A DNA stretch of 64,000 bases from an uncultured Ardenticatenaceae bacterium. GTDB taxonomy: Bacteria > Chloroflexota > Anaerolineae > Promineifilales > Promineifilaceae. Both the position numbers and the translations under genes were made by a program. Under the pieces are notes generated by a model. The model was not told the DNA's origin. It searched no databases and saw only the letters and a program-made list of their open reading frames with translations. Shown here piece after piece: positions 17,928 to 33,233 of this stretch (position 1 is the first letter of the stretch; the number at the start of each line of letters is the position of its first letter). Location: positions 6,428 to 70,427 of the forward strand of contig CAYLJW010000004.1 in NCBI GenBank assembly GCA_964384155.1, given 5' to 3'.

Positions 17928-18686
17928 TTACAGGGAATCTGGCGAAACGCGACCCACGCGCAGGTGGAGGGGCCAGCGCACGAGGCGTTCTTGTTGGGGG
18001 TCGCCCCAGGCTTGTTGCAGGGGTTCTAGGATTTCGAGGAGAGGGTGGCGACCGCGATCTTCGAGGTAGTTGCGGGTGCCGGACCAGCTGGAGAGGAAGC
18101 CGAGCAGGTCGTCGAGGGTCCATTGGGCGCGGGCTTCGAAGGGCGGGGGTTCGATTTCGGGAAAGGTGAAGGGGAGGGTCTGGTAGCGGGCTTCGAGGTA
18201 GGCGATGCGCTCGGCCCAGAATCCGGCGAGGGTGTGGCGGTAGTAGTGTTCGATGTAGGCGTCTATGGCGGGGTCGATCTGAGTGAGGTGGTAGGTCCAC
18301 ACGGCGAGGATGGCGCGGGGCATGCTGACGCGGCGCACTTCGCGGTAAAAGGCGTCGAAGTCGAACCAGTGCACGGCGGTGCCCACGGTGGTGAGGGCCA
18401 CGGTTCCTGCGGCGAAGGATGTTTGCTCGGCGGGTTCGACGCGGTAGGTGACGCGTTCGTGAGCAAAGGCGCGGGCGATTTGCTCGGCGCTGGCGTCGGT
18501 GGCAATCACTTGCTCAAACTGTTCAGCCAGGGCCACAGCGGCCTGTCCGTTGCCTGTGGCGCAATCCCAGGCCAGGTCGCGCGCGGGCGCCAGCGCCGCC
18601 AGATATTGGAAAAGGGCCGGCGGGTAGCCCGGGCGATGCGCCGCGTAGGCCGCGGCCAATTTTGAGAAGTGATCTTCGAAGGTCAA
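17928..18686 (-). CDS. class I SAM-dependent methyltransferase
   Basis: SAM motif I (AWDCATGNGQAA) followed by VIATDAS. TTG start at 18686 preceded by AAGGAG at 6 nt. The longest ORF reaches 18806. Confidence 0.75.
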   Translation of the reverse strand: MTFEDHFSKLAAAYAAHRPGYPPALFQYLAALAPARDLAWDCATGNGQAAVALAEQFEQVIATDASAEQIARAFAHERVTYRVEPAEQTSFAAGTVALTTVGTAVHWFDFDAFYREVRRVSMPRAILAVWTYHLTQIDPAIDAYIEHYYRHTLAGFWAERIAYLEARYQTLPFTFPEIEPPPFEARAQWTLDDLLGFLSSWSGTRNYLEDRGRHPLLEILEPLQQAWGDPQQERLVRWPLHLRVGRVSPDSL

Positions 18687-18815
18687 ATCTGTCTCCTTCT
18701 TCACGATGTTATGGACGCATGGCTTGTTTGCACGATAATATCGACCCTCGTTCTCCGCCCGAGAGCCCCCGGTCGGGCGGCCAAAGAGCAAAAATACGGA
18801 TGGCAAGCTTTAACA

Positions 18816-19901
18816 ATGATACATTCTGACAACGTAATTTCCGAGCCGAGCCAGGTAGACGCCGCATGGCTAACACGGGCGCTCACGGCAGCCGGCGCCT
18901 TACGTGACGGCGCGGTTGCCGATGTCGCCATGCAAATCGAAGTGCGTTCGCTTTCTACCATCGCCCGTCTGCAGCTTGCCTATACAGCAGGCGCTCAAGG
19001 CGTGCGCCCGCAGCGGCTCTTTCTGAAAATATGCACCCCCGGTGCGGGCAATGAGCTGCTGGGCCCTTCTGAAGTGCATTATTACACACGCGATTATGCG
19101 GGTGTGCGCGGTGTGCCGTTGCTCACGTACTACGACGCCGCTTACTCGGCGGAGCAGGGCAGCTACCACCTGCTGCTGGACGATGTTTCGGCGACGCACG
19201 CCGAGAGCCACGGTCGCACGCCCACGCTGGCCTATGGCCTGGCGTTGGCCGAAGGGCTGGCGCGCATGCACGTGCATTGGTGGGGGCCGGGGCACCTTGA
19301 GGCGGGCGGCGAAGCGATCCCCGGCGCGGCCGAAATCGAACGTTACGTGGCAATGGCGCGCGCTGGTCTGGCGCCTATGCTGCAAGGCGTGCGCGGAGAA
19401 ATTACGACAACGTGGCGAGCAGCCCTGCACGACCTGTTCACCTATCACCCCGCCGAGATGATCGCGCGCACGGCGAATACGCACGGCTTTACGTTGGTGC
19501 ATGGCGACGTGAACCCCGGCAATATTCTGGCGCCGGTTCTGGGCGACGCGCCGGTTTATATCATCGACCGCCAGCCGTTCGACTGGAGCCTCACCACCTG
19601 GCTGGGCGTGAGCGACCTGGCCTACATGATGGTGCACTGGTGGGATAGCGACATACGGCGCGAATTGGAAACGCCTATCTTGCGCCATTATCACCAGCTT
19701 CTATGCGCGGCCGGCGTGCGCCACTATAGTTGGCAGCAGCTCCTGTTAGACTATCGGTTGTGTGTGGTGCAAAGCGTCTATGTCGCGACTGAATGGTGCC
19801 GCAACGAGGCCGATTGTGTAGACATGAAGTGGGCCTGGTTCCCCATGCTGCAGAAGGCGATGACGGCTTATTTTGATCACGATTGCGCCAGTCTATGGTA
19901 A
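18816..19901 (+). CDS. phosphotransferase-family (APH/choline-kinase-like) protein
   Basis: Brenner/catalytic motif LVHGDVNPGNIL followed by IIDRQ. ATG 18816 is chosen because the upstream extension overlaps the divergent methyltransferase gene. Confidence 0.75.
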   Translation: MIHSDNVISEPSQVDAAWLTRALTAAGALRDGAVADVAMQIEVRSLSTIARLQLAYTAGAQGVRPQRLFLKICTPGAGNELLGPSEVHYYTRDYAGVRGVPLLTYYDAAYSAEQGSYHLLLDDVSATHAESHGRTPTLAYGLALAEGLARMHVHWWGPGHLEAGGEAIPGAAEIERYVAMARAGLAPMLQGVRGEITTTWRAALHDLFTYHPAEMIARTANTHGFTLVHGDVNPGNILAPVLGDAPVYIIDRQPFDWSLTTWLGVSDLAYMMVHWWDSDIRRELETPILRHYHQLLCAAGVRHYSWQQLLLDYRLCVVQSVYVATEWCRNEADCVDMKWAWFPMLQKAMTAYFDHDCASLW

Positions 19902-19970
19902 AACATCAGATGTACACAGCATTGACCTGGAGATCGAGGGTAGCGTTGATGCGGAGAGGCAAGTAAGCTC

Positions 19971-20240
19971 CTATGGGAATACACGATAAATGTCTTTGCG
20001 ATGCAAAAACCTAACGAAGACGACTTCTTTACCCATAACGTCAATGCCAAGCCGGTACTCCCCCAGTCGGATCCGATATATGGTGTCGTAACCTTGCAGC
20101 TTTTTGAGGTTCCGTACTTGACTTAACTCGTCAGCAGCTTTGACTTCTTCGATAATGCTCTGGATGCGCTATAAAAGCTGTTTGTCCTTAAGCCGCCGCA
20201 GATCTCGAGCAAAGCTGGGCTCGAATAAGACCTCCACCAC
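19971..20240 (-). pseudogene. RelE/ParE-family toxin gene interrupted by an in-frame TAG (codon 24)
   Basis: Minus-strand translation: VVEVLFEPSFARDLRRLKDKQLL*RIQSIIEEVKAADELSQVRNLKKLQGYDTIYRIRLGEYRLGIDVMGKEVVFVRFLHRKDIYRVFP. This is a typical RelE/ParE toxin signature (YRIRxGxYR, FxxxxHRKDIY). The stop codon lies at 20169-20171. The locus is AT-rich relative to its flanks. Confidence 0.7.
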
Positions 20241-20339
20241 TATCCCTCCAGGATCGTTTTGATTTCGTCTTCGGCAGCGATGACGCGCTTATACAAAGCG
20301 CACCAGGGAGCGTCGCACAGCGTTGTGCACAATTTACAG

Positions 20340-20368
20340 TGGACAAAGCATAGCCGCTTCGTTACACT
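20340..20368 (+). promoter_or_regulatory. candidate sigma70-like promoter of the ilv-leu leader (TGGACA-17 nt-TACACT)
   Basis: Hexamers at 20340-20345 and 20363-20368 with a 17-nt spacer. Confidence 0.3.
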
Positions 20369-20438
20369 GAAAAGCATCGCGCAAAGTGGCGCGGATCTTT
20401 TGGATGAAGAGAGAATCTTTTACAGACTTGTTGACCAG

Positions 20439-20534
20439 ATGATTTCTGCCAACATCCTTATCGTTGTCCTGCTTATCGGCCTGTTCCTTATTCTTATTGA
20501 GGAACCGAATACACCTGGACAGCCACGGATGTGA
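20439..20534 (+). CDS. candidate ilv-leu leader peptide MISANILIVVLLIGLFLILIEEPNTPGQPRM
   Basis: 31 codons, with 14 of codons 2-20 being Ile/Leu/Val. Located just upstream of a terminator and the BCAA operon. No strong SD is visible. Confidence 0.5.
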   Translation: MISANILIVVLLIGLFLILIEEPNTPGQPRM

Positions 20535-20566
20535 TGGTTTAGAAACCACCCAACACCAGAAAACGC

Positions 20567-20603
20567 AAAGGGCTGTCTACCAAGACAGCCCTTTTTGTTT
20601 TTT
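20567..20603 (+). terminator. intrinsic terminator / attenuator 31 nt upstream of ilvD
   Basis: AAAGGGCTGTCT-ACCA-AGACAGCCCTTT running into TTTTTGTTTTTT. No plus-strand gene ends nearby, so it is best read as a leader attenuator. Confidence 0.65.
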
Positions 20604-20634
20604 GGCCTAATGACAATGTGGAAAGAGGGAATCC

Positions 20635-22290
<1,656 letters not shown>

Positions 22291-22353
22291 GCAGGAACCG
22301 GTGATTGGAAGGCCGGCTGCTGGCGCTCGTGGCTTGCAGGCGGCAAGGAGACG

Positions 22354-24063
22354 ATGATGAAGAAAAGTGGCGCTGAAATCATGTGGGAGTGTCTGGTTCG
22401 CGAAGGCGTGGAGGTCGTCTTCGGGTATCCGGGCGGGGCGATTATGCCGGCATACGATGCCATGCTCGACTATCCCATCCACCATGTGCTGGTGCGCCAC
22501 GAACAGGGCGCGGCGCACATGGCCGACGGTTACGCGCGGGCCACAGGCAAAGTGGGCGTAGCGATGGCCACGTCGGGCCCCGGTGCGACCAACCTGGTCA
22601 CCGGTATTGTCACGGCGATGATGGACTCATCGCCCATTGTATGCATCACAGGGCAGGTGGCCTCGAACCTCATTGGCGGCGATGCTTTCCAGGAAACGGA
22701 TGTTACGGGCATTACGCTGCCCATCACCAAGCATAACTTCCTAGTGACGCGCGCGGACGAGATTGCGGAGGTGCTGCGCGAGGCGTTCTATATTGCGCGC
22801 AGCGGGCGGCCGGGTCCGGTGCTCATCGACATCTGCAAGAACGCGCAGGTGGAGCAGGCGGTGTTCGACTATCCGCAGCAGCCTAACATGCCGGGCTATA
22901 AGCCGCCGCAGCACGCGCCCGAAGCCGACCTACGCCATGCTGCGGCGCTCATTGCCGAGGCCGAACGACCGGTCATCCTGGCGGGACACGGCGTGCTCAA
23001 GTCTGGCGCGATGCAGGCGCTGCACGATTTTGCGGTGAAAACGCAAACGCCCGTAGCCATGACGCTGTTGGGCCTGGGCAGCCTGCCCGCTTCGCACCCG
23101 CTGAGCCTGGGCATGATGGGCATGCACGGCGAGGCCTACTGCAATAACGCCATCCAGCAGGCGGACCTGCTGCTGGCCTTTGGGATGCGTTTCGACGACC
23201 GCGTGACCGGCAACCTGCGTACCTATGCGCCGCGCGCGCGCAAAATTCACGTGGAAATCGATCCTTCCGAGGTGCATAAGAACGTGCGCGTGGATGTGCC
23301 CCTGGTGGGCGACCTGCGCACGGTGCTCCAGGATTTGCTGCCGCTCGTGGCGCCCGGCGACCATGAAGAATGGCTGGAACGAGTGGCCGAATGGAAGGGA
23401 GACACGGTGCAGCGGGATATCCTGGCCTGGCCCGAAGATGGGCTGCTCTACTCCTCACATGTCATTCGCGACATCTGGCAGCATACGGGCGGCGACTCGA
23501 TTGTGACCACCGACGTGGGCCAGCACCAGATGTGGACGGCGCAATATTACCACTTCGAGCAGCCTTACCGCCTCATTACATCGGGCGGCGCGGGCACCAT
23601 GGGCTTCGGTATGCCTGCGGCTATCGGCGCCTGGTTTGGCCACAAGGAGCGCGAGATCTGGGCCATTGTCGGAGACGGCGGCTTCCAGATGACACAAGCC
23701 GAGCTGGCGACCGCGGTGCAAGAGCAGGCCAACGTTAAAATTGCCATTTTGAACAACAGCTACCTGGGCATGGTGCGCCAGTGGCAGGAGTTCTTCTTCA
23801 AAAAACGGTATTCGGCTGTTTATATGAAGAACCCTGATTTCGTGAAACTGGCGGAGGCGCATGGCATTCCAGCGCGCAAGGTCACGAGCCGCGAAGAGGC
23901 CGGCGACGCGCTGCGCTTTGCCAGTGAGACGCCTGGCCCGGTGCTGCTCGAGTTTGTCGTGGAGATGGAAGAAGCCGTGTTCCCCATGGTGCCCGCAGGG
24001 GCCGACCTCGACGACATGATCCGCCGGCCGGTGCGGCGGGCGCAGGCAGAGGCAGCCGACTAG
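22354..24063 (+). CDS. ilvB: acetolactate synthase large subunit (biosynthetic)
   Basis: ThDP enzyme motifs (GYPGGAIMP, GPGATNLVTG, GDGGFQMTQAELAT...NN). Confidence 0.95.
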   Translation: MMKKSGAEIMWECLVREGVEVVFGYPGGAIMPAYDAMLDYPIHHVLVRHEQGAAHMADGYARATGKVGVAMATSGPGATNLVTGIVTAMMDSSPIVCITGQVASNLIGGDAFQETDVTGITLPITKHNFLVTRADEIAEVLREAFYIARSGRPGPVLIDICKNAQVEQAVFDYPQQPNMPGYKPPQHAPEADLRHAAALIAEAERPVILAGHGVLKSGAMQALHDFAVKTQTPVAMTLLGLGSLPASHPLSLGMMGMHGEAYCNNAIQQADLLLAFGMRFDDRVTGNLRTYAPRARKIHVEIDPSEVHKNVRVDVPLVGDLRTVLQDLLPLVAPGDHEEWLERVAEWKGDTVQRDILAWPEDGLLYSSHVIRDIWQHTGGDSIVTTDVGQHQMWTAQYYHFEQPYRLITSGGAGTMGFGMPAAIGAWFGHKEREIWAIVGDGGFQMTQAELATAVQEQANVKIAILNNSYLGMVRQWQEFFFKKRYSAVYMKNPDFVKLAEAHGIPARKVTSREEAGDALRFASETPGPVLLEFVVEMEEAVFPMVPAGADLDDMIRRPVRRAQAEAAD

Positions 24064-24105
24064 CGGGCGCCGCCGCCAAACGCCGTCTATGCAAAGGAGA
24101 GTATC

Positions 24106-25727
<1,622 letters not shown>

Positions 25728-25774
25728 GTAGCCGGGAAATCGTTTCAGGTAGAGCGTGTCTGCGCCAGCGGGCC

Positions 25775-27439
25775 ATGCTGCCGAAGGAGTTCATGATGAG
25801 CAACAACAGGGTAACGATCTTTGACACGACGCTGCGCGACGGCGAGCAATCGCCCGGTGCGACGCTGACCTCGGCCGAGAAGCTGGAGATTGCGCGCATG
25901 CTGGCGCGCCTGGGCGTGGACGTGATGGAAGCGGGCTTCCCGGCGGCCTCACCGGACGACCTGGAAGCCGTGCGCCAGATAGCCGACCAGGTGGGCAACA
26001 CGGAGCCGGCGCCCGGCCGCCTGCCGCCCGTTATCTGCGGCCTGGCGCGCGCCACACGCAGCGACATCGACCAGGCGTGGCAGGCGGTGCAGCACGCACA
26101 GCGTCCGCGCATCCACACTTTCCTGGCAACCTCGCCCATTCACATGAAGTACAAGCTGCGCATGGATCCGGAAGAAGTTGTGGATCAGGTGCGCGAAATG
26201 GTGGCCTACGCCCGCAGTTACTGCGACGACGTAGAGTTCTCGCCCGAAGACGCCGGGCGCAGCGACCCCGAATTCCTCTACCTGGTGTTGGGCGAAGCGA
26301 TTAAGGCCGGGGCCACCACGCTAAACATCCCCGACACCGTGGGCTACACGGTTCCCGACGAATTTGGCGCGCTGATCGCCGGCATCATGGCCAACACGCC
26401 GGGCATCGAAAACGCGGTCGTTTCCGTACACTGCCACAACGACCTGGGCCTGGCGACGGCTAACACGCTCGCCGGCGTGCAGGCCGGTGCGCGGCAGGTA
26501 GAAGTGACGATCAACGGCATTGGCGAGCGCGCCGGAAACACCTCGCTGGAAGAAGTGGTGATGAGCCTGCACACGCGGCGCGCGGCCTACAACCTGGAGA
26601 CGGGTATAGACACCACGCAGATCACGCGCGCCAGCCGCATGGTCTCCAACTATACCGGGCTGCCCGTGCAGCCCAACAAGGCCATCGTCGGCGCCAACGC
26701 CTTCGCCCACGAAGCCGGCATCCACCAGGACGGCATGCTAAAGCATGAGGAGACCTATGAGATCATGCGCCCGGAAACCGTGGGCCTGCAGCAGTCGGCC
26801 CTGGTGCTGGGCAAGCATTCGGGGCGGCACGCGCTCAAAGTGCGCCTGGCGGACTTGGGCTTTGAAATCGAAGATGCCGGCGAGCTGCAGCGCGTCTTCG
26901 CGCGCTTCAAAGAAGTGGCCGACAAGAAGAAGACGATTACCGACGCCGACCTGGAAGCCTTAATGGCCGATGAACGCTACCAGCCGCGTGAAATCTTTCG
27001 CCTGCAAGGGCTGCAGGTGGCCTGTGGCACGATGGGTATGGCCACGGCAACCTTGCGCCTGGAGGGGCCTGATGGCCTGACGCACACACAGGCGGCCGTG
27101 GGCAGCGGGCCGGTCGACGCCGCCTACAAGGCAATTGACGCCATCGTCTGCGCGCCCAACAAGCTGCTGGAGTTTGCCGTGCGATCCGTCACCGAGGGCA
27201 TCGACGCCATCGGTGAGGTGAGCGTGCGCCTGGAGGCGGATAACGGCGGCCGGCAGACGCGCACGTTGCCGCAAACTGGACGGGAGCAGGCGCGCACGTT
27301 CGGGGGGCATGGCGCGGACACGGACATTATCGTGGCCAGCGCCAACGCCTATCTCGCGGCCCTGAACAAATTGCTGGCGGCGACCGGCCGCTACGACGCG
27401 CAAGTAGATGCGCCCGCCATGCAGGCGGCTGTGGCTTAA
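25775..27439 (+). CDS. leuA: 2-isopropylmalate synthase
   Basis: [23 protein letters not shown], and a LeuA dimerisation/regulatory C-terminal domain. The start is probably ATG 25793 or 25796, after AAGGAG. Confidence 0.95.
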
Positions 27440-27468
27440 TTAGCCAAAAGAAAGAGGCGTAAACGCTT

Positions 27469-28875
27469 ATGACCCAACCTAAGACCCTCTTCGACAAAAT
27501 CTGGGATAGCCACGTGGTGCTCGACGAGGAAGGCGCGCCCACCGTGCTGTACATCGACCTGCACCTGGTGCACGAAGTGACCTCACCGCAGGCGTTTAGC
27601 GGGCTGCGACGGCGCGGGCTGAAAGTACGGCGACCCGACCTGACCTTAGCCACCATGGACCATTCCACGCCGACTACGGGCCTCGATTTGCCTATGCTCG
27701 ACGCACAGGCCGCGCAGCAACTGGCGCAACTGGCGCAAAACTGCCGCGCCTTTGGCGTACCACTTTTCGACATGCACAGCGCCGAGCGTGGCATTGTGCA
27801 CGTCATCGGGCCTGAGCAAGGCTTTACGCAGCCGGGCAAGACCATCGTCTGCGGCGACAGCCACACCTCGACGCACGGCGCTTTCGGCGCGTTGGCCTTT
27901 GGCATTGGCACCAGCGAAGTCGAGCACGTATTGGCCACGCAATGCCTTTTGCAATACCGGCCCAAGACCTTTCTGGTGAATTTCGACGGGCAGCTTGCGC
28001 CAGGCGTGACGGCTAAAGACATGATCCTGGCCCTGATCGCCAAAATCGGGGTCGGCGGCGGCACGGGCCACGTGCTGGAATATGCCGGTTCGGCTGTGCG
28101 CAGCCTGTCTATGGAAGCGCGCATGACGCTGTGTAACATGTCGATTGAAGGCGGCGCGCGCGCGGGCATGATCGCGCCCGACGAGACCACATTTGAGTAT
28201 GTCGCCGGGCGCCCGCAGGCGCCGCAGGGGGCTGCCTGGGATCGAGCCGTCGCCGCCTGGCGCGCCCTGCCCAGCGACGAAGGGGCGAACTATGATCGCA
28301 GCATCACCGTCGACGTGGACAGCCTGGAGCCGATGATTACGTATGGCACCAACCCCGGCATGGGCCTGCCAATTAGCCAGCCTGTGCCCGACCCCGCCAC
28401 GGCAGGCGACCCTGCCGGCCGCGCCTCGCTGGAAAAGGCGCTGCGCTACATGGACCTGCAGCCGGGCCGGCCGCTGCTGGGGCATAAGATAGACGTCGTC
28501 TTTCTCGGTAGCTGTACCAACGCGCGCCTCTCCGATTTGCGCGAAGCGGCGCGCCTGATGCGCGGCCGCAAGGTAGCGCCCGGCGTGCGCATGCTGGTGG
28601 TGCCGGGCTCTGAAAATGTGCGCCGCGAGGCGGAAGCCGAAGGCCTGCACCAGGTCTTTATAAAAGCCGGCGCCGAATGGCGCAATGCCGGATGCTCGAT
28701 GTGCATTGCCATGAACGGCGACCAGCTTGCGCCCGGACAGGTGGCCATCAGCACCAGCAACCGCAACTTTGAGGGCCGGCAAGGACCCGGCGGCCGCACA
28801 TTCCTCGCCAGCCCGCTCACAGCCGCCGCCAGCGCGGTTACCGGACAGGTTACCGACCCGCGGAGCTTACAATGA
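27469..28875 (+). CDS. leuC: 3-isopropylmalate dehydratase large subunit
   Basis: Aconitase-family Fe-S ligand motifs ([27 protein letters not shown]). Confidence 0.95.
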
Positions 28876-29465
28876 GAGCCTTCCAAACGCTAAGTTCGAC
28901 CGTCGTGACCGTGCCTTACGACAATATCGATACCGACCAGATCATTCCGGCCAGTTACCTGAAGGTGACGGATAAGGAAGGGCTGGCGCAGGGCCTCTTC
29001 GCGCGCTGGCGCTACGCGGCCGATGGGCAGCCGGTCCCCGACTTTCCGCTGAACCAGGCGCAGCGTCGCGGTGGGCAGGTGCTGCTCGCCGGCGACAACT
29101 TTGGCTGCGGCTCTTCGCGTGAGCACGCGCCGTGGGCCTTGCTTGGCTTCGGCTTTCGCGCCGTGATCAGCACCTCATTTGCCGATATCTTCCGCAACAA
29201 TGCGTTGAAGAACGGCCTGCTGCCGGTGGCCATCGCGCCGCAGGCGCACGCGCTCCTGCTGGCGCAGACGCAGGCCGACCCGCGGGCCGTGGTGACCATC
29301 GACCTGTCGTCGCAGACGGTAACCTTGCCCGATGGCCAGGCGGCGCACTTTGCCATCGATAGCTTTAGCAAGCGCTGCTTGCTGCAAGGCGTCGATCAGC
29401 TTGGCTATCTTCTCCATCAGTTGTCGCGCATCGAGGAGTATGAACGTAGCAGGGCAGCGGCATAG
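28872..29465 (+). CDS. leuD: 3-isopropylmalate dehydratase small subunit
   Basis: ATGA overlap with leu[18 protein letters not shown] swivel-domain motif. Confidence 0.95.
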
Positions 29466-29492
29466 CCGCTGAGCCCTTGCTCTGAAAGCGTA

Positions 29493-31106
29493 ATGGATAT
29501 AGAGGCCAACATGACCGGACCAGTCGCCATCTATGACACCACCCTGCGCGACGGCGCGCAGCGCGAAGGCATTTCGCTCTCCCTGGCGGACAAGCTGAAG
29601 ATTGCGCGCCGCCTGGACGAGTTCGGCGTGCACTATATCGAAGGCGGCTGGCCCGGCTCGAACCCAAAAGATGAGGAGTTTTTTCGCGCTGCGCGCGATG
29701 TCGACTGGCGTCGCGCGCGCATTACAGCCTTTGGCAGCACGCGCCGTAAACATTGCGCGCCGGCCGGCGACTCCAACATGCTCGCGCTGCTGCAGGCGCG
29801 GACGCCCGTCGTGACGCTGGTGGGCAAAAGCTGGGACCTGCATGTCTTCGAGGTGTTAGAAACAGACCTCGAAGAGAACCTGGCGATGATCGCAGACAGC
29901 GTAGCTTATCTGAAAGAACTGGGCAAAGAGGTGATTTACGATGCCGAACATTTCTTTGACGGTTACAAGGCCAACCCCGACTACGCCATACTTTGTGCGC
30001 GCGTGGCGGCTGAGGCGGGTGCAGATACGGTGGTGCTGTGCGACACCAACGGCGGCTCGCTGCCCTGGGAAGTAGAACGCATTGTGCGCCGCGTGGCGCA
30101 GAACGTGGACGCGCCGTTAGGTATCCATACGCACGACGACGGCGGCTGTGGAGTGGCCAACACCCTGGCCGCCGTGCAGGCCGGCGCTGTGCATGTGCAG
30201 GGCACCATCAACGGCTATGGCGAGCGCGTGGGCAACGCCAATTTGTGCATTATCGTGCCCGACCTGCAGCTAAAAATGGGCCGCACCTGTGTTGCGCCGG
30301 ACCAATTGCAGCGGCTCACTGAGCTGGCGCGCTACGTGGCTGAGGTGGCCAACCTGCCGCACGGCAGCCACCAGCCCTTCGTCGGCGACAGCGCTTTTGC
30401 GCATAAGGGCGGTATTCATGTGGCGGCCATGCGCAAAAATGAGCACAGCTACCAGCACATCGATCCGGCTCTGGTAGGTAACCGGCGGCGCACGGTGATT
30501 TCCGAGCTGTCGGGGCGCGGCAACGTACTGGATAAGGCCGACGAGTTTGGCATCGACGTGGACGGCGCTCAGGCGCGCGAAGTGGTGCAGCACATTAAGA
30601 GCCTGGAGGCCAGCGGCTTTGCCTTTGAAAGCGCCGAAGCGTCGCTCGATCTGATGCTGCGCCGCCTGCAGCCTGGCTACCGGCCGCCCTTCGAGCTGTT
30701 GGATTACACTGTGCTGGTGCGCCATGACAGCGATAGCGGGGCGCTCGCCGACGCCACGGTGAAGGTGCGCATCGGTGAGCGCGTGCTGCATACTGCCGCC
30801 GAAGGCAACGGGCCAGTGAATGCCCTGGACGGCGCGCTGCGTAAAGCGCTGCTCGACGCCTACCCGCAGTTGGCCGACGTGCGGCTGAGCGATTACAAAG
30901 TGCGTATCCTCGACGGCGACAGCGCTACGGCGGCCGTTGTGCGTGTGCTGATCGACACCGAAGATGGACGCCGCCGTTGGAGTACGGTGGGCGCCAGCGC
31001 CAATATTATCGAAGCCAGCTGGCGCGCGCTGACCGATAGTATGGAATTTGCCCTGCTGAACGGTCACGAGAACCTGGCGCCGCAGCAGGTAATGGTTAGC
31101 CGCTAG
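29493..31106 (+). CDS. cimA: (R)-citramalate synthase-type LeuA paralogue
   Basis: [48 protein letters not shown] is the N-terminal pattern of the CimA subfamily rather than LeuA. The start may be ATG 29511. Confidence 0.75.
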
Positions 31107-31119
31107 CCGTAGGAGACCT

Positions 31120-32214
31120 ATGAAAGCGCACATTGTGCTGTTACCCGGTGATGGCATTGGCCCTGAAGTCGTGGAGGCTGCCCTGCAGGTGCTGCATACG
31201 GTCGGCAGGCTGTTCCAGCACGCCTTCCAAACGGAGCAGCGGTTGCTGGGTGGCTGCGCCATCGAGGCCAGGGGTACGGCTCTGCCGGAAGACACGCTGC
31301 AGGCGTGCCGGCAGGCCGACGCTGTGCTGCTGGGGGCTGTGGGCGGCCCGCAGTGGGATGCTCCCAGCGCCGCCGTGCGCCCGGAACAAGGGCTTCTTGG
31401 GATCCGCCAGGCGTTGGGGCTTTATGCCAACCTGCGACCGGCCAGGCCACACCCCAGCCTCGCCGCCGCCTCGCCCCTGCGCCCGGAACGGCTGCAGGGC
31501 GTCGACTTGCTGGTGGTGCGCGAGCTGACCGGCGGCGTTTATTTTGGCCGGCCGCGTGAGCGGCGTTTTGAAAATGGTGAGTGGCTGGCCCTGGACACCA
31601 TGGTTTATAAAGAACATGAGATCCGCCGCGTGGCGCGCCTGGCCTTCGACATGGCGCGCCAGCGCCGCCACAAAGTGAGCTCGGTGGATAAAGCCAACGT
31701 GCTGGAAAGCTCGCGGCTGTGGCGGCAGACGGTGAGCGAGGTGGCCGCGGAATATCCGGATGTCGTCTGCGAGCATTTGTTGGTGGATGCGGCGACGATG
31801 TACCTGCTGAGCCGCCCTGCGAGCTTTGACGTGCTGGTCACAACCAATCTGTTTGGCGACATCCTCACCGACGAGGCGTCGATGCTCACCGGCTCGCTGG
31901 GCAACCTGCCTTCCGCTTCGTTGGGCGAAGCCCATAACCGGCATGGTTTGCGGCGCGGCCTGTACGAGCCTGTTCACGGTTCGGCCCCCGACATTGCAGG
32001 GCAGGGCGTAGCCAACCCCATTGGCGCCATTCTTTCAGTGGCCATGATGCTGCGGCACTCGTTTTGCCTGGAGCGCGAAGCCACAGCCGTCGAAGCGGCC
32101 GTGGAGCGCACGCTGCTGGCCGGGCGCCGCACCGCAGACCTGGCGCTGGATGGCGAAACGCCGCAAAGCACGGCGGAGATGACGGATCTTATCGTGGAGG
32201 CGCTGGGTGGCTAG
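31120..32214 (+). CDS. leuB: 3-isopropylmalate dehydrogenase
   Basis: [30 protein letters not shown] and overall IPMDH length. Confidence 0.95.
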
Positions 32215-32234
32215 CGCATAATGATGAATGAGGA

Positions 32235-33233
32235 GTGCGTAAGATGAGGCGAAACATCTATTCGACGGACGGGCGCGGCGCAGTTGATTTTGATCCCTAC
32301 CCCCTGCAAGCTCCGGCGCCGCAACGCGCTACGACGCCCTTGTTCTATGACTGTGTGTGGATCAACGGCGAGCTGGTACCAGCCGAAGATGCGCACGTTG
32401 GCGATGAGCCGGCCATTTGTGAGGAGATTCGCTGCTACGACACGGAACGCGGTCCGGCCATTTTCAGGCTGGAGAACCACCTGCAGCGCTTCCTGAAAGC
32501 AGCCCACACCATGGATGCGGGCGACCTGCGCTATAACATGCTGGAGCTGCGCCGCGCCGTGCACGTGACGGCGTATGTGAACAACCTCTCGTCGGGCACG
32601 GTGCGGCCGATTGTCTATGCCGACCGCCGGCGCGCCGCCGGCTCTTACCCCACCGTGGCTGTGGTGGCGGCGACGCAAGCCGCGCCGGACGCAGCCAGTG
32701 TAGCTCGCGACGGTGTGCGCTTGCAGACTGTGCCTGTCCAGCAGAAAAGCCCAGGCAACGTCCTTTCGCGCCAGACGCTTCAGCAGCGCACGGCCCGCGC
32801 CACACAGGCGCGGCTGGCGGCGCGGCGCGCGCAGTTCGACGAAGCCGTGCTGCTGGGACCCAACGGCATGGTGATCGATTGCACGGGCGGCAACTTGTTC
32901 CTGGTTCATGACGGTGTGGTGCATACGTCGCCTGCAGACGGCGACAATGACGTGGCCCGCGACACGGCGATTACGCTGCTGTACGATATGGGCTATGACG
33001 TCGTGGCACAGCCTACCAGCCGCAAGCTGCTCTTGCGCGCCGAGGAGCTATTCCTGTGGAGGGCCGGCGGCGAGCTGCTGACCGTGGCGCAGCTAGACGA
33101 TCGCCCCTTTGACCAGGCTTCAAGCGTGACGGTCACCAGCCGTCTGCAGCAGCTCTTTGCAGCGACCACACGTGGCCGCGCACGTCGCTCGCGCGGCTGG
33201 CTGGAATACGTGATGATGGAGCCGCTTTTCTAG
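32235..33233 (+). CDS. divergent class IV (branched-chain/D-amino-acid) aminotransferase-like protein
   Basis: Recognisable fold-type IV blocks (AIFRLENHLQRF, DEAVLLGPNGMVIDCTGGNLFLV, AEELFL), but several conserved segments are degenerate and an Arg/Ala-rich insert is present. Last gene of the ilv-leu operon. Confidence 0.55.
   Translation: MRKMRRNIYSTDGRGAVDFDPYPLQAPAPQRATTPLFYDCVWINGELVPAEDAHVGDEPAICEEIRCYDTERGPAIFRLENHLQRFLKAAHTMDAGDLRYNMLELRRAVHVTAYVNNLSSGTVRPIVYADRRRAAGSYPTVAVVAATQAAPDAASVARDGVRLQTVPVQQKSPGNVLSRQTLQQRTARATQARLAARRAQFDEAVLLGPNGMVIDCTGGNLFLVHDGVVHTSPADGDNDVARDTAITLLYDMGYDVVAQPTSRKLLLRAEELFLWRAGGELLTVAQLDDRPFDQASSVTVTSRLQQLFAATTRGRARRSRGWLEYVMMEPLF

Follow-up and report, generated by a model that had tools for sequence, protein, structure and literature searches.

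The stretch of DNA analysed here (64 kb, referred to throughout as the window) carries a ten-gene operon that begins with ilvD and has all its genes on one strand, with spacers of at most 63 nt. Using NCBIfam, we found that the first nine genes score above the curated cut-offs, which bears out the identities ilvD-ilvBNC-leuA-leuCD-cimA-leuB assigned in an earlier note on this DNA; the tenth, a class-IV aminotransferase-like gene, scores under the ilvE cut-off. No strong terminator was found inside the operon. Directly upstream of ilvD lies a leader region containing a promoter, a short open reading frame (ORF), an intrinsic terminator and several further RNA elements (Table 1). All coordinates and sequences given for this region in the earlier note were rechecked and are correct in every detail.

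Table 1. Features of the leader region and of the operon downstream of it, with positions counted in the window
Feature	Positions	Strand	Sequence or composition	Identified by
Conserved block with partial dyad symmetry, overlapping the -35	20323-20346	+	TTGTGCA-N10-TGGACAA	
Promoter	20340-20368	+	-35 TGGACA (20340-20345), 17-nt spacer, -10 TACACT (20363-20368)	Consensus scan
Hairpin at the leader 5' end	20377-20394	+	UCGCGC-AAAGUG-GCGCGG	MFE fold and scan
Leader ORF	20439-20534	+	31 codons and TGA; peptide MISANILIVVLLIGLFLILIEEPNTPGQPRM	Direct sequence reading
Sensor run, codons 2-20	20442-20498	+	6 Ile, 6 Leu, 2 Val	Composition count
Region 1, predicted to pair with region 2 when the ribosome is absent (anti-antiterminator)	20463-20469	+	GUUGUCC	MFE folds
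P1 hairpin within the ORF, nested between regions 1 and 2	20481-20507	+	CUGUUCCUUA/UGAGGAACCG	
Region 2, putative antiterminator 5' strand, near copy of the terminator 3' arm	20516-20524	+	UGGACAGCC	
Small spacer hairpin between stop codon and terminator, in the loop of the 2:3 helix	20535-20548	+	UGGUU-UAGA-AACCA	MFE folds
Region 3, terminator 5' arm; 20571-20579 pairs alternatively with region 2	20567-20579	+	AAAGGGCUGUCU (20567-20578)	
Region 4, terminator 3' arm and U-tract	20583-20603	+	AGACAGCCCUUU (20583-20594), UUGUUUUUU (20595-20603)	
Operon	20635-33233	+	ilvD, ilvB, ilvN, ilvC, leuA, leuC, leuD, cimA, leuB, class-IV aminotransferase-like gene	

The promoter-like site with a 17-nt spacer that had been proposed for this leader was recovered by the consensus scan, and transcription is predicted to start at about position 20375. 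The small ORF runs from an ATG at 20439 to a TGA at 20532-20534, with start, stop and peptide as read before. Recounting its codons 2-20 again gave 14 Ile, Leu or Val (ILV) residues in 19 positions, a content with P = 2e-6 at the operon genes' own ILV frequency. Four of the six Leu codons in this sensor run are the rare CTT, which makes up 6% of the Leu codons of the operon genes. The ORF had also been described as AT-rich; its G+C content indeed drops to 0.40, against 0.63 for the window. Scanning both strands of the 64 kb, we found no second ILV-rich short ORF of this type.

The terminator hairpin (AAAGGGCTGTCT/AGACAGCCCTTT, 20567-20594) has 12 bp and a dG of -19.2 kcal/mol. It starts 32 nt past the leader stop codon, and its tail TTGTTTTTT ends at 20603, 31 nt short of the ilvD ATG at 20635, all of which agrees with the earlier description. 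Within positions 1-40000 of the window, only one other terminator-like site has a stem of at least 11 bp. Region 2, which ends 7 nt before the leader stop codon, is complementary to GGCUGUCUA (20571-20579) in the terminator 5' arm. The previously claimed pairing of 9 bp including one G-U was reproduced, with an RNAduplex energy of -16.1 kcal/mol.

To compare this region between genomes, we assembled 13 distinct relatives whose ilvD is 74-90% identical to that of the window, chosen by ilvD similarity only and not by their leaders. Most are labelled Chloroflexota, Anaerolineae or Promineifilaceae; one (L165) is labelled as belonging to an acidobacterial family, where mis-binning is possible. Among the matches listed in ilvD scans of genome and metagenome contigs, all with at most 78% identity, the leader was present at 2 of 162 loci, and closer relatives were obtained through a protein search and exact look-ups. 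The earlier note had proposed conservation of an ILV-rich short ORF plus terminator in orthologous leaders as a test of its reading. In all 13 relatives a promoter, an ILV-rich ORF, region 2 and a terminator lie directly upstream of ilvD, and the leader stays linked to ilvD while the upstream gene neighbours differ. Across about 1 Mb of ilvD loci read on the ilvD strand, ORFs of this kind occur only upstream of ilvD and are always followed by a terminator. A three-part motif and the covariance model R1 likewise match only these leaders in the same approximately 1 Mb (about 2.1 Mb on both strands); searched with R1, 171 loci and the rest of the window yielded no additional member.

The -35 and -10 hexamers and their spacing are kept among the relatives within divergent flanking sequence. 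The dyad block has the consensus TTTGGnCA-N7-ACAAT(A/G)GACAAA across the family (alignment A4) and in one relative (L166) forms a perfect repeat, GCTGTCA-N11-TGACAGC; from its sequence and position at the -35, the block could bind a regulator or serve as an UP-like element. Relatives also show a hairpin of other sequence, judged by eye, where the window has the 5'-end hairpin, which could conceivably protect the mRNA 5' end.

These comparisons bear on the simplest alternative, that an ordinary intergenic terminator, for example a two-way terminator of a former upstream gene, happens to lie beside an accidental AT-rich ORF. An A-run precedes the hairpin and a T-run follows it, so that it scores on both strands, and the upstream region contains decayed toxin-antitoxin genes, as this alternative would have it. 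An open antisense frame, an automatic by-product of the NTN codons, also fits it. Against it, no convergent gene ends at the leader site, the ILV content is far from the operon genes' expectation (P as above), the motif is unique in the approximately 2.1 Mb searched on both strands, and the full arrangement is kept in 13 lineages whose upstream neighbours differ. We consider such a coincidence exceedingly improbable, and the comparative sequence data effectively refute it.

The leader ORF is conserved as a reading frame. All 13 relatives have an ATG-started ORF of 31-40 codons, and the ATG is invariant among them. Its distance to the motif (A/C)TT(G/A)AG is 57, 60, 63, 66 or 72 nt, in every case divisible by 3, so that every indel between the ATG and the conserved in-ORF hairpin, marked by the ATTGAG motif, preserves the frame. 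The sensor runs of the relatives diverge in sequence, with 70% ILV (202 of 287 residues; L104, I68, V30) and no Met, Trp, Tyr or Cys. Between the window and one relative (L163), codons compared by hand across the ILV run differ by three synonymous changes and one Val-to-Ile change. Relative to region 2, the stop codon of every one of the 13 sequences lies at -4 to +17 nt, and the peptide tails vary (GQPRM, RGRPVM, VGS and VDS). None of the 13 sequences has a Shine-Dalgarno motif 5-12 nt before the leader ATG; ilvD, unlike the leader ORF, has one (AGAGGG, 20624-20629). A leaderless start of the ORF was dropped as an explanation, the conserved -10 sitting 35-70 nt upstream of the ATG. On the strength of its sequence conservation, the leader ORF is probably translated.

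Two longer frames at the same site were rejected. An 84/91-aa ORF (20259/20280-20534) has no family match, and among relatives the frame is open for anything from 4 to 162 codons before the ATG; the 84-91-aa 'hypothetical protein' of gene callers is an artefact of this frame, which is open ahead of the 31-codon leader. The minus-strand ORF at 20334-20549, which the earlier note had named as a possible real product of the locus, does exist, but it is not conserved, its stop-free length ranging from 44 to 141 codons among relatives, it matches no family, and it is open because of the NTN codons of the leader ORF.

Alternatively, the leader ORF could be an independent gene, ended by the hairpin as its own terminator, that encodes a small hydrophobic membrane peptide such as a type I toxin-like or another microprotein; transcription of the ilv operon would then be separate or occur by unregulated read-through. 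The peptide does resemble one transmembrane helix with a polar tail, and toxins of the Ibs, Ldr and TisB type are small and hydrophobic, with peptides of leader size known among them. Gene callers predict an ORF at this site, and a degraded ParE toxin gene adjoins it. The type I toxin-antitoxin systems would be expected at variable or mobile locations; the leader occupies a constant place before ilvD in all 13 genomes, strictly linked to it despite differing upstream neighbours. The ilvD ATG follows the U-tract after only 31 nt, in which no promoter-like site was found; nor was a minus-strand promoter-like site for an antisense RNA found in 19800-21000. The composition of the sensor runs is far from a transmembrane-like ILV frequency, assumed to be 0.45, and even at that frequency 14 of 19 ILV has a P of about 0.01. 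The polar tail is unconserved and changes frame, the peptide has no match in Pfam or NCBIfam, and the conserved complementarity between regions 2 and 3 would have no role. We therefore regard a microprotein gene as highly improbable.

Conservation extends to the RNA elements. Of the terminator's alignment cells 94% are paired, with compensatory changes from AU to GC or CG in its outer pairs. The GGRCRGCY of region 2 is kept in 12 of 13 sequences, despite standing in codon phase 0 in some and 2 in others, and a 2:3 duplex of -14 to -24 kcal/mol can form in all 13. The antiterminator alignment has 94% of cells paired, compared with 31-45% in slid controls. Changes in this helix, within the 12 sequences that conserve it, are mostly G-U wobbles, with both-sided change in only two cells, so that the alignment lends modest covariation support to the antiterminator. 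In the remaining case, a relative (L003) with another terminator stem (CACCUCCC/GGGAGGUG), region 2 differs correspondingly, a co-change at the level of the whole helix. The end of region 2 lies between 4 nt inside and 17 nt before the stop codon across the 13 sequences. In L166, L170 and L173, 16-17 nt lie between region 2 and the stop codon, a distance at which coverage of region 2 by a terminating ribosome would be marginal.

Region 1 and P1 are two conserved elements beyond those of the earlier note. P1 has both-sided changes at 5 of its 10 pairs, with 88% of cells paired, and is more stable than shuffled sequences in 11 of 13 cases; it may act as a pause or spacer hairpin. RNAalifold independently recovers P1 and the terminator. 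Taken jointly, the two have 91.6% of cells paired and 10 pairs changed on both sides, and 0 of 500 shuffles were as good, statistics that overstate independence because the 13 relatives are phylogenetically related. The 1:2 helix is extended by CAUCC (20453-20457) pairing with GGAUG (20527-20531), and in L166 and L170 a compensatory change pairs GGUCGUCC with GGACGGCC. Its per-sequence shuffle P values lie between 0.04 and 0.78 and fall short of significance in most of the sequences taken singly, and its register differs between sub-groups. At the position of the small spacer hairpin, relatives carry hairpins of other sequence, for example GCUAGC...GCUAGC in L168 and L083.

Covarying structures such as P1 and the terminator would also be expected if the ORF were incidental and a trans-acting factor (an RNA-binding protein, a tRNA or a small ligand) recognised the structured leader RNA and chose between terminator and antiterminator. 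Region 2 is kept at the RNA rather than the peptide level, the ORF has no Shine-Dalgarno, and T-boxes or ppGpp riboswitches serve BCAA operons elsewhere (PMC10272879). Searches with Rfam 15 at gathering thresholds nevertheless gave no match in the window or 12 relatives, that is, no riboswitch, T-box or protein-binding leader, and only noise at E of at most 10; the T-box covariance model gave no match in 20150-20700 even at E of at most 10. The exclusion of a T-box or other known leader class, which the earlier note had asked of Rfam, was thereby obtained. Except for P1, little conserved structure that could form an aptamer lies upstream of region 2. An incidental ORF would not hold its ATG invariant, nor would it occur in five lengths, each a multiple of three, stay at 70% ILV codons while its sequence diverges, or have its stop codon beside region 2 every time. 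We judge regulation of this kind very unlikely.

The elements themselves, their conservation, the kept reading frame, the complementarities and the co-variation were found by computation or comparison, and on them we base the conclusion that the leader is, with high probability, a ribosome-mediated (leader-peptide) transcription attenuator of the ilvD-ilvBNC-leuA-leuCD-cimA-leuB operon. The enterobacterial-type ilv/leu attenuation proposed in the earlier note is thus supported by frame conservation, by the antiterminator complementarity and by the helix-level co-change in L003.

Simulated ribosome positions gave a divided answer to the earlier proposal that folding should reveal two mutually exclusive structures. 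When the full leader was folded at equilibrium with ribosome masks, the terminator had a probability of at least 0.9 in every state and every sequence, and a purely thermodynamic switch was rejected. When the transcript was cut before the 3' arm, three states appeared: without a ribosome, the 1:2 helix and P1 form and region 3 is free; when the A site is placed at codon 8 or 12, region 2 pairs with region 3; when it is placed at the stop codon, region 2 is masked, leaving region 3 free. These classical states appear only with the cut transcript, and in four relatives they are blurred by the arbitrary 40-nt 5' flank. Since the terminator always wins at equilibrium, the switch must be kinetic, and antitermination would presumably arise from co-transcriptional kinetic competition.

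In the attenuation model, RNA polymerase would start at about 20375 from the TGGACA/TACACT promoter and a ribosome would translate the 31-codon leader behind it. When charged Ile-, Leu- or Val-tRNA is scarce, the ribosome would stall in the ILV run, at about codons 5-20, covering region 1 and leaving region 2 free. Free region 2 would pair with newly made region 3, so that the terminator could not nucleate and RNA polymerase would read into ilvD. When BCAA are plentiful, the ribosome would reach the stop codon 7 nt past region 2 and mask it or, having departed, would allow region 1 to re-pair with region 2. In either case region 3 would be free, the 12-bp terminator would form and transcription would end at the U-tract, at about 20597-20603. 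An untranslated leader, in which regions 1 and 2 would pair around the nested P1, is expected to terminate too. Both the stalling and a response to BCAA in vivo are what we infer from these elements. If the model is true, changing region 2 from GGACAGCC to GGAGUGCC predicts constitutive termination.

As a type, this regulator is well known; here it is a lineage-specific version listed in no database. The enterobacterial ilvGMEDA operon has a leader, ilvL, that encodes a 32-aa peptide rich in Ile, Leu and Val and works by multivalent attenuation. The leader described here resembles it in its peptide of about 32 codons mixing the three BCAA codons, in its intrinsic terminator, competing antiterminator and putative upstream protector pairing, and in the predicted control of an operon that contains ilvD. 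Unlike the ilvGMEDA leader, it precedes a fused ilv, leu and cimA operon that begins with ilvD and is served by this one leader, has no Shine-Dalgarno and a conserved P1 nested in the ORF, and comes from a Chloroflexota-like host. No sequence or model homology between the two was detectable: blastn against 5,426 E. coli genomes gave no match, Pfam and NCBIfam searches with eight leader peptides returned only noise at E of at most 10, and Rfam was negative as above. The enterobacterial leu operon leader (Rfam Leu_leader) contains a run of rare CUA Leu codons. Host-rare Leu codons and the terminator/antiterminator logic are shared with it, whereas here the sensor codons number 14, a much longer run in which Ile, Leu and Val are mixed, and Rfam gives no match.

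Attenuators with BCAA uORFs are known in several phyla, one of them without a ribosome-binding site (PMC10272879). The Corynebacterium ilvB-II uORF and the C. glutamicum ilvBNC leader likewise combine a BCAA-rich uORF with terminator and antiterminator stems before a BCAA operon, and according to PMC10272879, citing Morbach 2000, the C. glutamicum leader peptide is synthesised although its ORF has no ribosome-binding site, a parallel to the Shine-Dalgarno-less ORF here. The Corynebacterium leaders differ in phylum (Actinomycetota), in first gene (ilvB), in sequence and in structure, and have experimental support, whereas the ilvD leader is proposed from sequence comparison. The ilvB-OMG and Leptospira ilvB motifs, which PMC10272879 reinterprets as attenuators with uORFs rich in BCAA and Thr, are similarly comparative-genomics candidates upstream of BCAA genes in little-studied phyla, with support from conservation; they differ in preceding ilvB and in encoding peptides that are also Thr-rich, and neither the window nor its relatives matched any Rfam family at E of at most 10, beyond noise. 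In Staphylococcus aureus, according to PMC5794164, a leucine-rich attenuator peptide precedes a combined ilv-leu operon as here, but the system is that of a Firmicute, is Leu-specific and acts with CodY; no sequence relation is apparent.

In the literature searched, nothing contradicted the earlier note's view that leaders of this type lack characterisation in the group: none was found described in Chloroflexi, though an earlier description may exist. A bolder reading, to which we give limited credence, is that the leaders form an undescribed clade-specific attenuator RNA family of Anaerolineae/Promineifilales-type Chloroflexota that goes beyond the textbook design, with Shine-Dalgarno-independent leader initiation, an in-ORF hairpin as a possible programmed pause or second checkpoint, a dyad operator over the -35 and, in the closest relatives, a second terminator in tandem.

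Attenuation requires a ribosome close behind RNA polymerase, and a conserved attenuator predicts transcription-translation coupling in uncultured Chloroflexota, a phylum whose gene regulation is almost unstudied. A functional leader would be direct evidence that this coupling is tight. The arrangement also suggests a single switch for the whole Ile, Leu and Val pathway, the citramalate route to isoleucine included. Model R1 and the alignment of 13 sequences could serve as the seed of a new RNA family.

A second family of ilvD leaders was found at Acidobacteriota-type loci, with peptides ending ...TPAASG and the terminator GGCCATCATCC/GGRTGATGGCC. Like the leaders described above, these lie directly upstream of ilvD and combine a V/I-rich short ORF with a conserved terminator, but their peptide and stem sequences are unrelated, and R1 scores them at 17-21 bits (E 0.09 to 0.9). 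Their presence suggests that attenuators are far commoner in uncultured phyla than databases show.

Reading 20100-20800 directly and translating it bore out the short open reading frame (ORF) that the earlier note had placed ahead of ilvD, with 14 Ile, Leu or Val (ILV) residues (Ile 6, Leu 6, Val 2) in codons 2-20. Against the operon's own ILV frequency, 14 of 19 has P = 2e-6, and scanning both strands of the window revealed no second such short ORF; chance is excluded as the source of the ILV-rich ORF. G+C over the ORF is 0.40, versus 0.63 for the window. CTT, which accounts for 6% of Leu codons in the operon genes, supplies four of the six Leu codons here, a pattern reminiscent of the enterobacterial leu leader and its use of rare codons. 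The leader ATG is without a Shine-Dalgarno sequence in all 13 family members examined, for which C. glutamicum offers a precedent (PMC10272879).

In two Logan contigs matching the window (L081, L082), gene callers place an ORF of 84 or 91 aa in the leader frame (20259/20280-20534, +). Both this ORF and a 71-aa antisense ORF (20334-20549, -), which the earlier note had raised as the possible real product, were rejected; neither is kept in relatives and both are apparently annotation artefacts. Searches of Pfam and NCBIfam assigned no family to any of eight leader peptides, nor to the extended 84-aa ORF or the minus-strand ORF.

Features of the ilvD leader region, and leader peptides of ilvD loci (L numbers) from other genomes or contigs
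Feature	Position	Strand	Details
Dyad block TTGTGCA-N10-TGGACAA	window 20323-20346		also at this site in 11 relatives (A4 alignment)
Promoter-like site TGGACA-17-TACACT	20340-20368	+	consensus scan; hexamers kept in family
Leader ORF	ATG 20439, TGA 20532-20534	+	read directly and translated; peptide MISANILIVVLLIGLFLILIEEPNTPGQPRM
Region 2 UGGACAGCC	20516-20524	+	9-bp pairing (one G-U) with GGCUGUCUA (20571-20579)
Terminator hairpin, 12 bp	20567-20594	+	begins 32 nt past leader stop; dG -19.2 kcal/mol
Terminator tail TTGTTTTTT	ends 20603	+	31 nt ahead of ilvD ATG (20635)
Tenth operon gene, class-IV aminotransferase-like	32235-33233	+	ilvE models E = 1e-43, 149 bits against a cut-off of 279
ParE-family toxin ORF	20240-19971	-	Pfam ParE_toxin E = 3e-8; in-frame TAG 20171-20169
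Leader peptide, L163			MISANILIIVLLIGLFLILIKELNMHGQPRM
Leader peptide, L166			MLLSNLVVLVLGGLFLILLLEEQNARGRPVMCSD
Leader peptide, L168			MLLPNTSLLLVLISLLSILVLILEIENQRLLVGS
Leader peptide, L083			MFDSLLISQLILVLILSVLVLIIEYRRYSVDS
Leader peptide, L003			MSIVSFLIISLVIISELLVLIEGGKRKLVEAV

On sequence grounds, relatives supply the decisive evidence for the proposed attenuator. Among the matches listed by two collection scans with ilvD (162 loci, all ≤78% identity), two had a similar ILV-rich ORF and terminator: L083 and L003 (Chloroflexota MAG). A protein search found ilvD relatives at 77-90% identity, labelled Chloroflexota, Anaerolineae SG8_19 or Promineifilaceae, with one acidobacterial family. 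Eleven further relatives were picked on ilvD identity and contig size alone, and the ten that gave DNA, together with L083, L003 and the window, formed a comparison set of 13 distinct sequences. The short ILV-rich ORF and terminator, whose conservation the earlier note had suggested examining, lie directly upstream of ilvD in 13/13, while the genes upstream of the leader vary (cytochrome c, prephenate dehydratase, metallo-beta-lactamase, LysM protein and others).

Across this set the leader ATG is invariant, and the distance from it to an (A/C)TT(G/A)AG motif is 57, 60, 63, 66 or 72 nt, all multiples of three. I/L/V make up 70% of the hydrophobic runs (L104, I68 and V30 of 287 residues), from which Met, Trp, Tyr and Cys are absent. 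Comparison of the window with L163 by hand counted four changes in the run, of which three are synonymous and the other is Val-to-Ile, and four non-synonymous changes in the tail. The leader ORF thus appears to behave as a translated sensor; were it incidental to an RNA sensed by a factor, its conserved reading frame and codons would be unexpected, and they contradict that explanation. A three-part motif and R1, a covariance model of the leader, matched these leaders only in ~1 Mb searched.

The 3' part of the leader, by comparison, appears to behave as RNA rather than peptide. A hairpin scan and duplex energies upheld the terminator, its tail and the 9-bp alternative pairing proposed in the earlier note; the hairpin is one of just two terminator-like sites with stems of at least 11 bp in 1-40000. 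RNAduplex placed the best partner of the terminator 5' arm at the ORF 3' end in 13/13 sequences (-14 to -24 kcal/mol), ending from 4 nt inside to 17 nt before the stop. In L003, where the terminator stem is quite different (CACCUCCC/GGGAGGUG), region 2 is changed to match (UGGUUGAGGCGGUG, -13.9 kcal/mol), a co-change at the level of the helix. GGRCRGCY is kept in 12/13 sequences and is read in phase 0 or 2, because the motif-to-region 2 distance varies (21, 23, 24 or 27 nt); the peptide tails are unlike one another (GQPRM, RGRPVM, VGS, VDS). On leader alignment A3, pairing in the antiterminator is 94%, whereas slid controls reach 31-45%; its variation is mainly by G-U wobble, with UA-to-CG in two sequences. 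The terminator together with P1, a hairpin inside the ORF (20481-20507), is 91.6% paired, with 10 pairs changed on both sides and 0/500 shuffles as good, and RNAalifold predicted both independently. This conserved complementarity between region 2 and the terminator 5' arm (region 3) contradicts the idea of a free-standing hydrophobic microprotein or type I toxin, as do the unconserved, frame-shifting tail, the fixed linkage to ilvD and the 31-nt gap without a promoter.

In the minimum-free-energy fold of the window, region 2 pairs with region 1 (GUUGUCC, 20463-20469, within the ILV run) around nested P1, and the terminator is formed. With the full terminator present, it wins in every simulated ribosome state; therefore the choice must be kinetic, as is the terminator/antiterminator choice in the trp paradigm. 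Ribosome states were folded on a transcript ending just before the terminator 3' arm. Without a ribosome, the fold contains the 1:2 pairing and P1 and leaves region 3 free, so that the terminator could form. Placing the ribosomal A site at codon 8 or 12 yields the 9-bp 2:3 helix, and for ribosomes at codons 5-16 P(arm paired) is ~1.0; a ribosome held in the ILV run would thus leave the terminator 5' arm engaged in this helix. A ribosome on the stop codon masks region 2, and region 3 stays free (P ~0.4), which would again release the arm. We infer that these modelled states correspond to the classical three-state attenuation logic. The 1:2 helix is individually not significant; in three relatives the stop follows region 2 by 16-17 nt, and their 1:2 duplexes rank among the strongest, which may compensate for the distant stop.

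Rfam 15 gave no match in the window at gathering thresholds, noise alone at E ≤10 over 20150-20700, and likewise nothing in twelve relatives; the search thus detected neither a T-box (RF00230) nor the other known leader classes suggested for checking. A blastn search of 5,426 E. coli genomes found no match. The window's leader would work like the enterobacterial ilvGMEDA leader: in both, a peptide of ~32 codons mixes all three ILV codon types, for multivalent sensing. It also resembles uORF attenuators of branched-chain amino acid (BCAA) genes in Corynebacterium, in Leptospira and at the ilvB-OMG motif (PMC10272879), and the BCAA attenuator of S. aureus (PMC5794164), yet shares no sequence or model membership with any of these systems. 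No description of such leaders for Chloroflexi came up in the literature searched. With frame and codon conservation, conserved 2:3 pairing and the folded ribosome states supporting ribosome-mediated attenuation, as first proposed, this is a real, conserved, clade-specific new example of a well-known regulator type.

Downstream, ilvD, ilvB, ilvN, ilvC, leuA, leuC, leuD, cimA and leuB score above curated NCBIfam cut-offs, all operon genes lie on one strand and spacers are ≤63 nt. Nine genes of the proposed ten-gene operon are therefore confirmed; the tenth is aminotransferase-like, and its assignment as a BCAA transaminase is uncertain because its ilvE score falls well below curated cut-offs. 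Upstream, the promoter-like site noted earlier was recovered, with family-wide hexamers T[A/G]GACA (-35) and TA[C/A]A[C/G]T (-10). They are preceded by a conserved block, TTTGGnCA-N7-ACAAT, whose partial dyad symmetry overlaps the -35; hexamers and block support a transcription start near 20375. The dyad block (GCTGTCA-N11-TGACAGC in L166) is a candidate operator and hints that a protein regulator may act on top of attenuation.

In the three closest relatives the first terminator lies ~190 nt from ilvD, and the stretch from the ILV attenuator to ilvD contains a further terminator-like hairpin (L163 ~1433-1475, L164 ~1421-1465, L165 ~1413-1455). It reads ACAGCCG(C/T)TTGTC-loop-GACAA(G/A)CGGCTGT plus a T-run, is absent from the window and could represent a second regulatory element in tandem; the sequence ahead of it showed no peptide conservation and no Rfam match. 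L165 (GCA_035464315.1, contig DATHSI010000336.1) is labelled Candidatus Sulfomarinibacteraceae (Acidobacteriota), but its leader is typical of the Chloroflexota type and its ilvD shares 84% identity with that of the window, which suggests mis-binning or lateral transfer.

An unrelated leader family lies ~30-150 nt upstream of ilvD in loci labelled Vicinamibacterales or Acidobacteriota and in related metagenome contigs (L040, L046, L087, L089, L105, L114, L120, L129 and others). Its V/I-rich short ORFs end ...(V/I)(I/T)TPAASG, its conserved terminator is GGCCATCATCC-loop-GGRTGATGGCC plus Ts, and R1 scores it at 17-21 bits only. Finally, between a kinase-like gene (18669-19901) and the ilv promoter, the ParE locus resembles a type II toxin-antitoxin module in decay, the antitoxin expected upstream (20240-20380, -) being apparently degraded into short frame-shifted ORFs.
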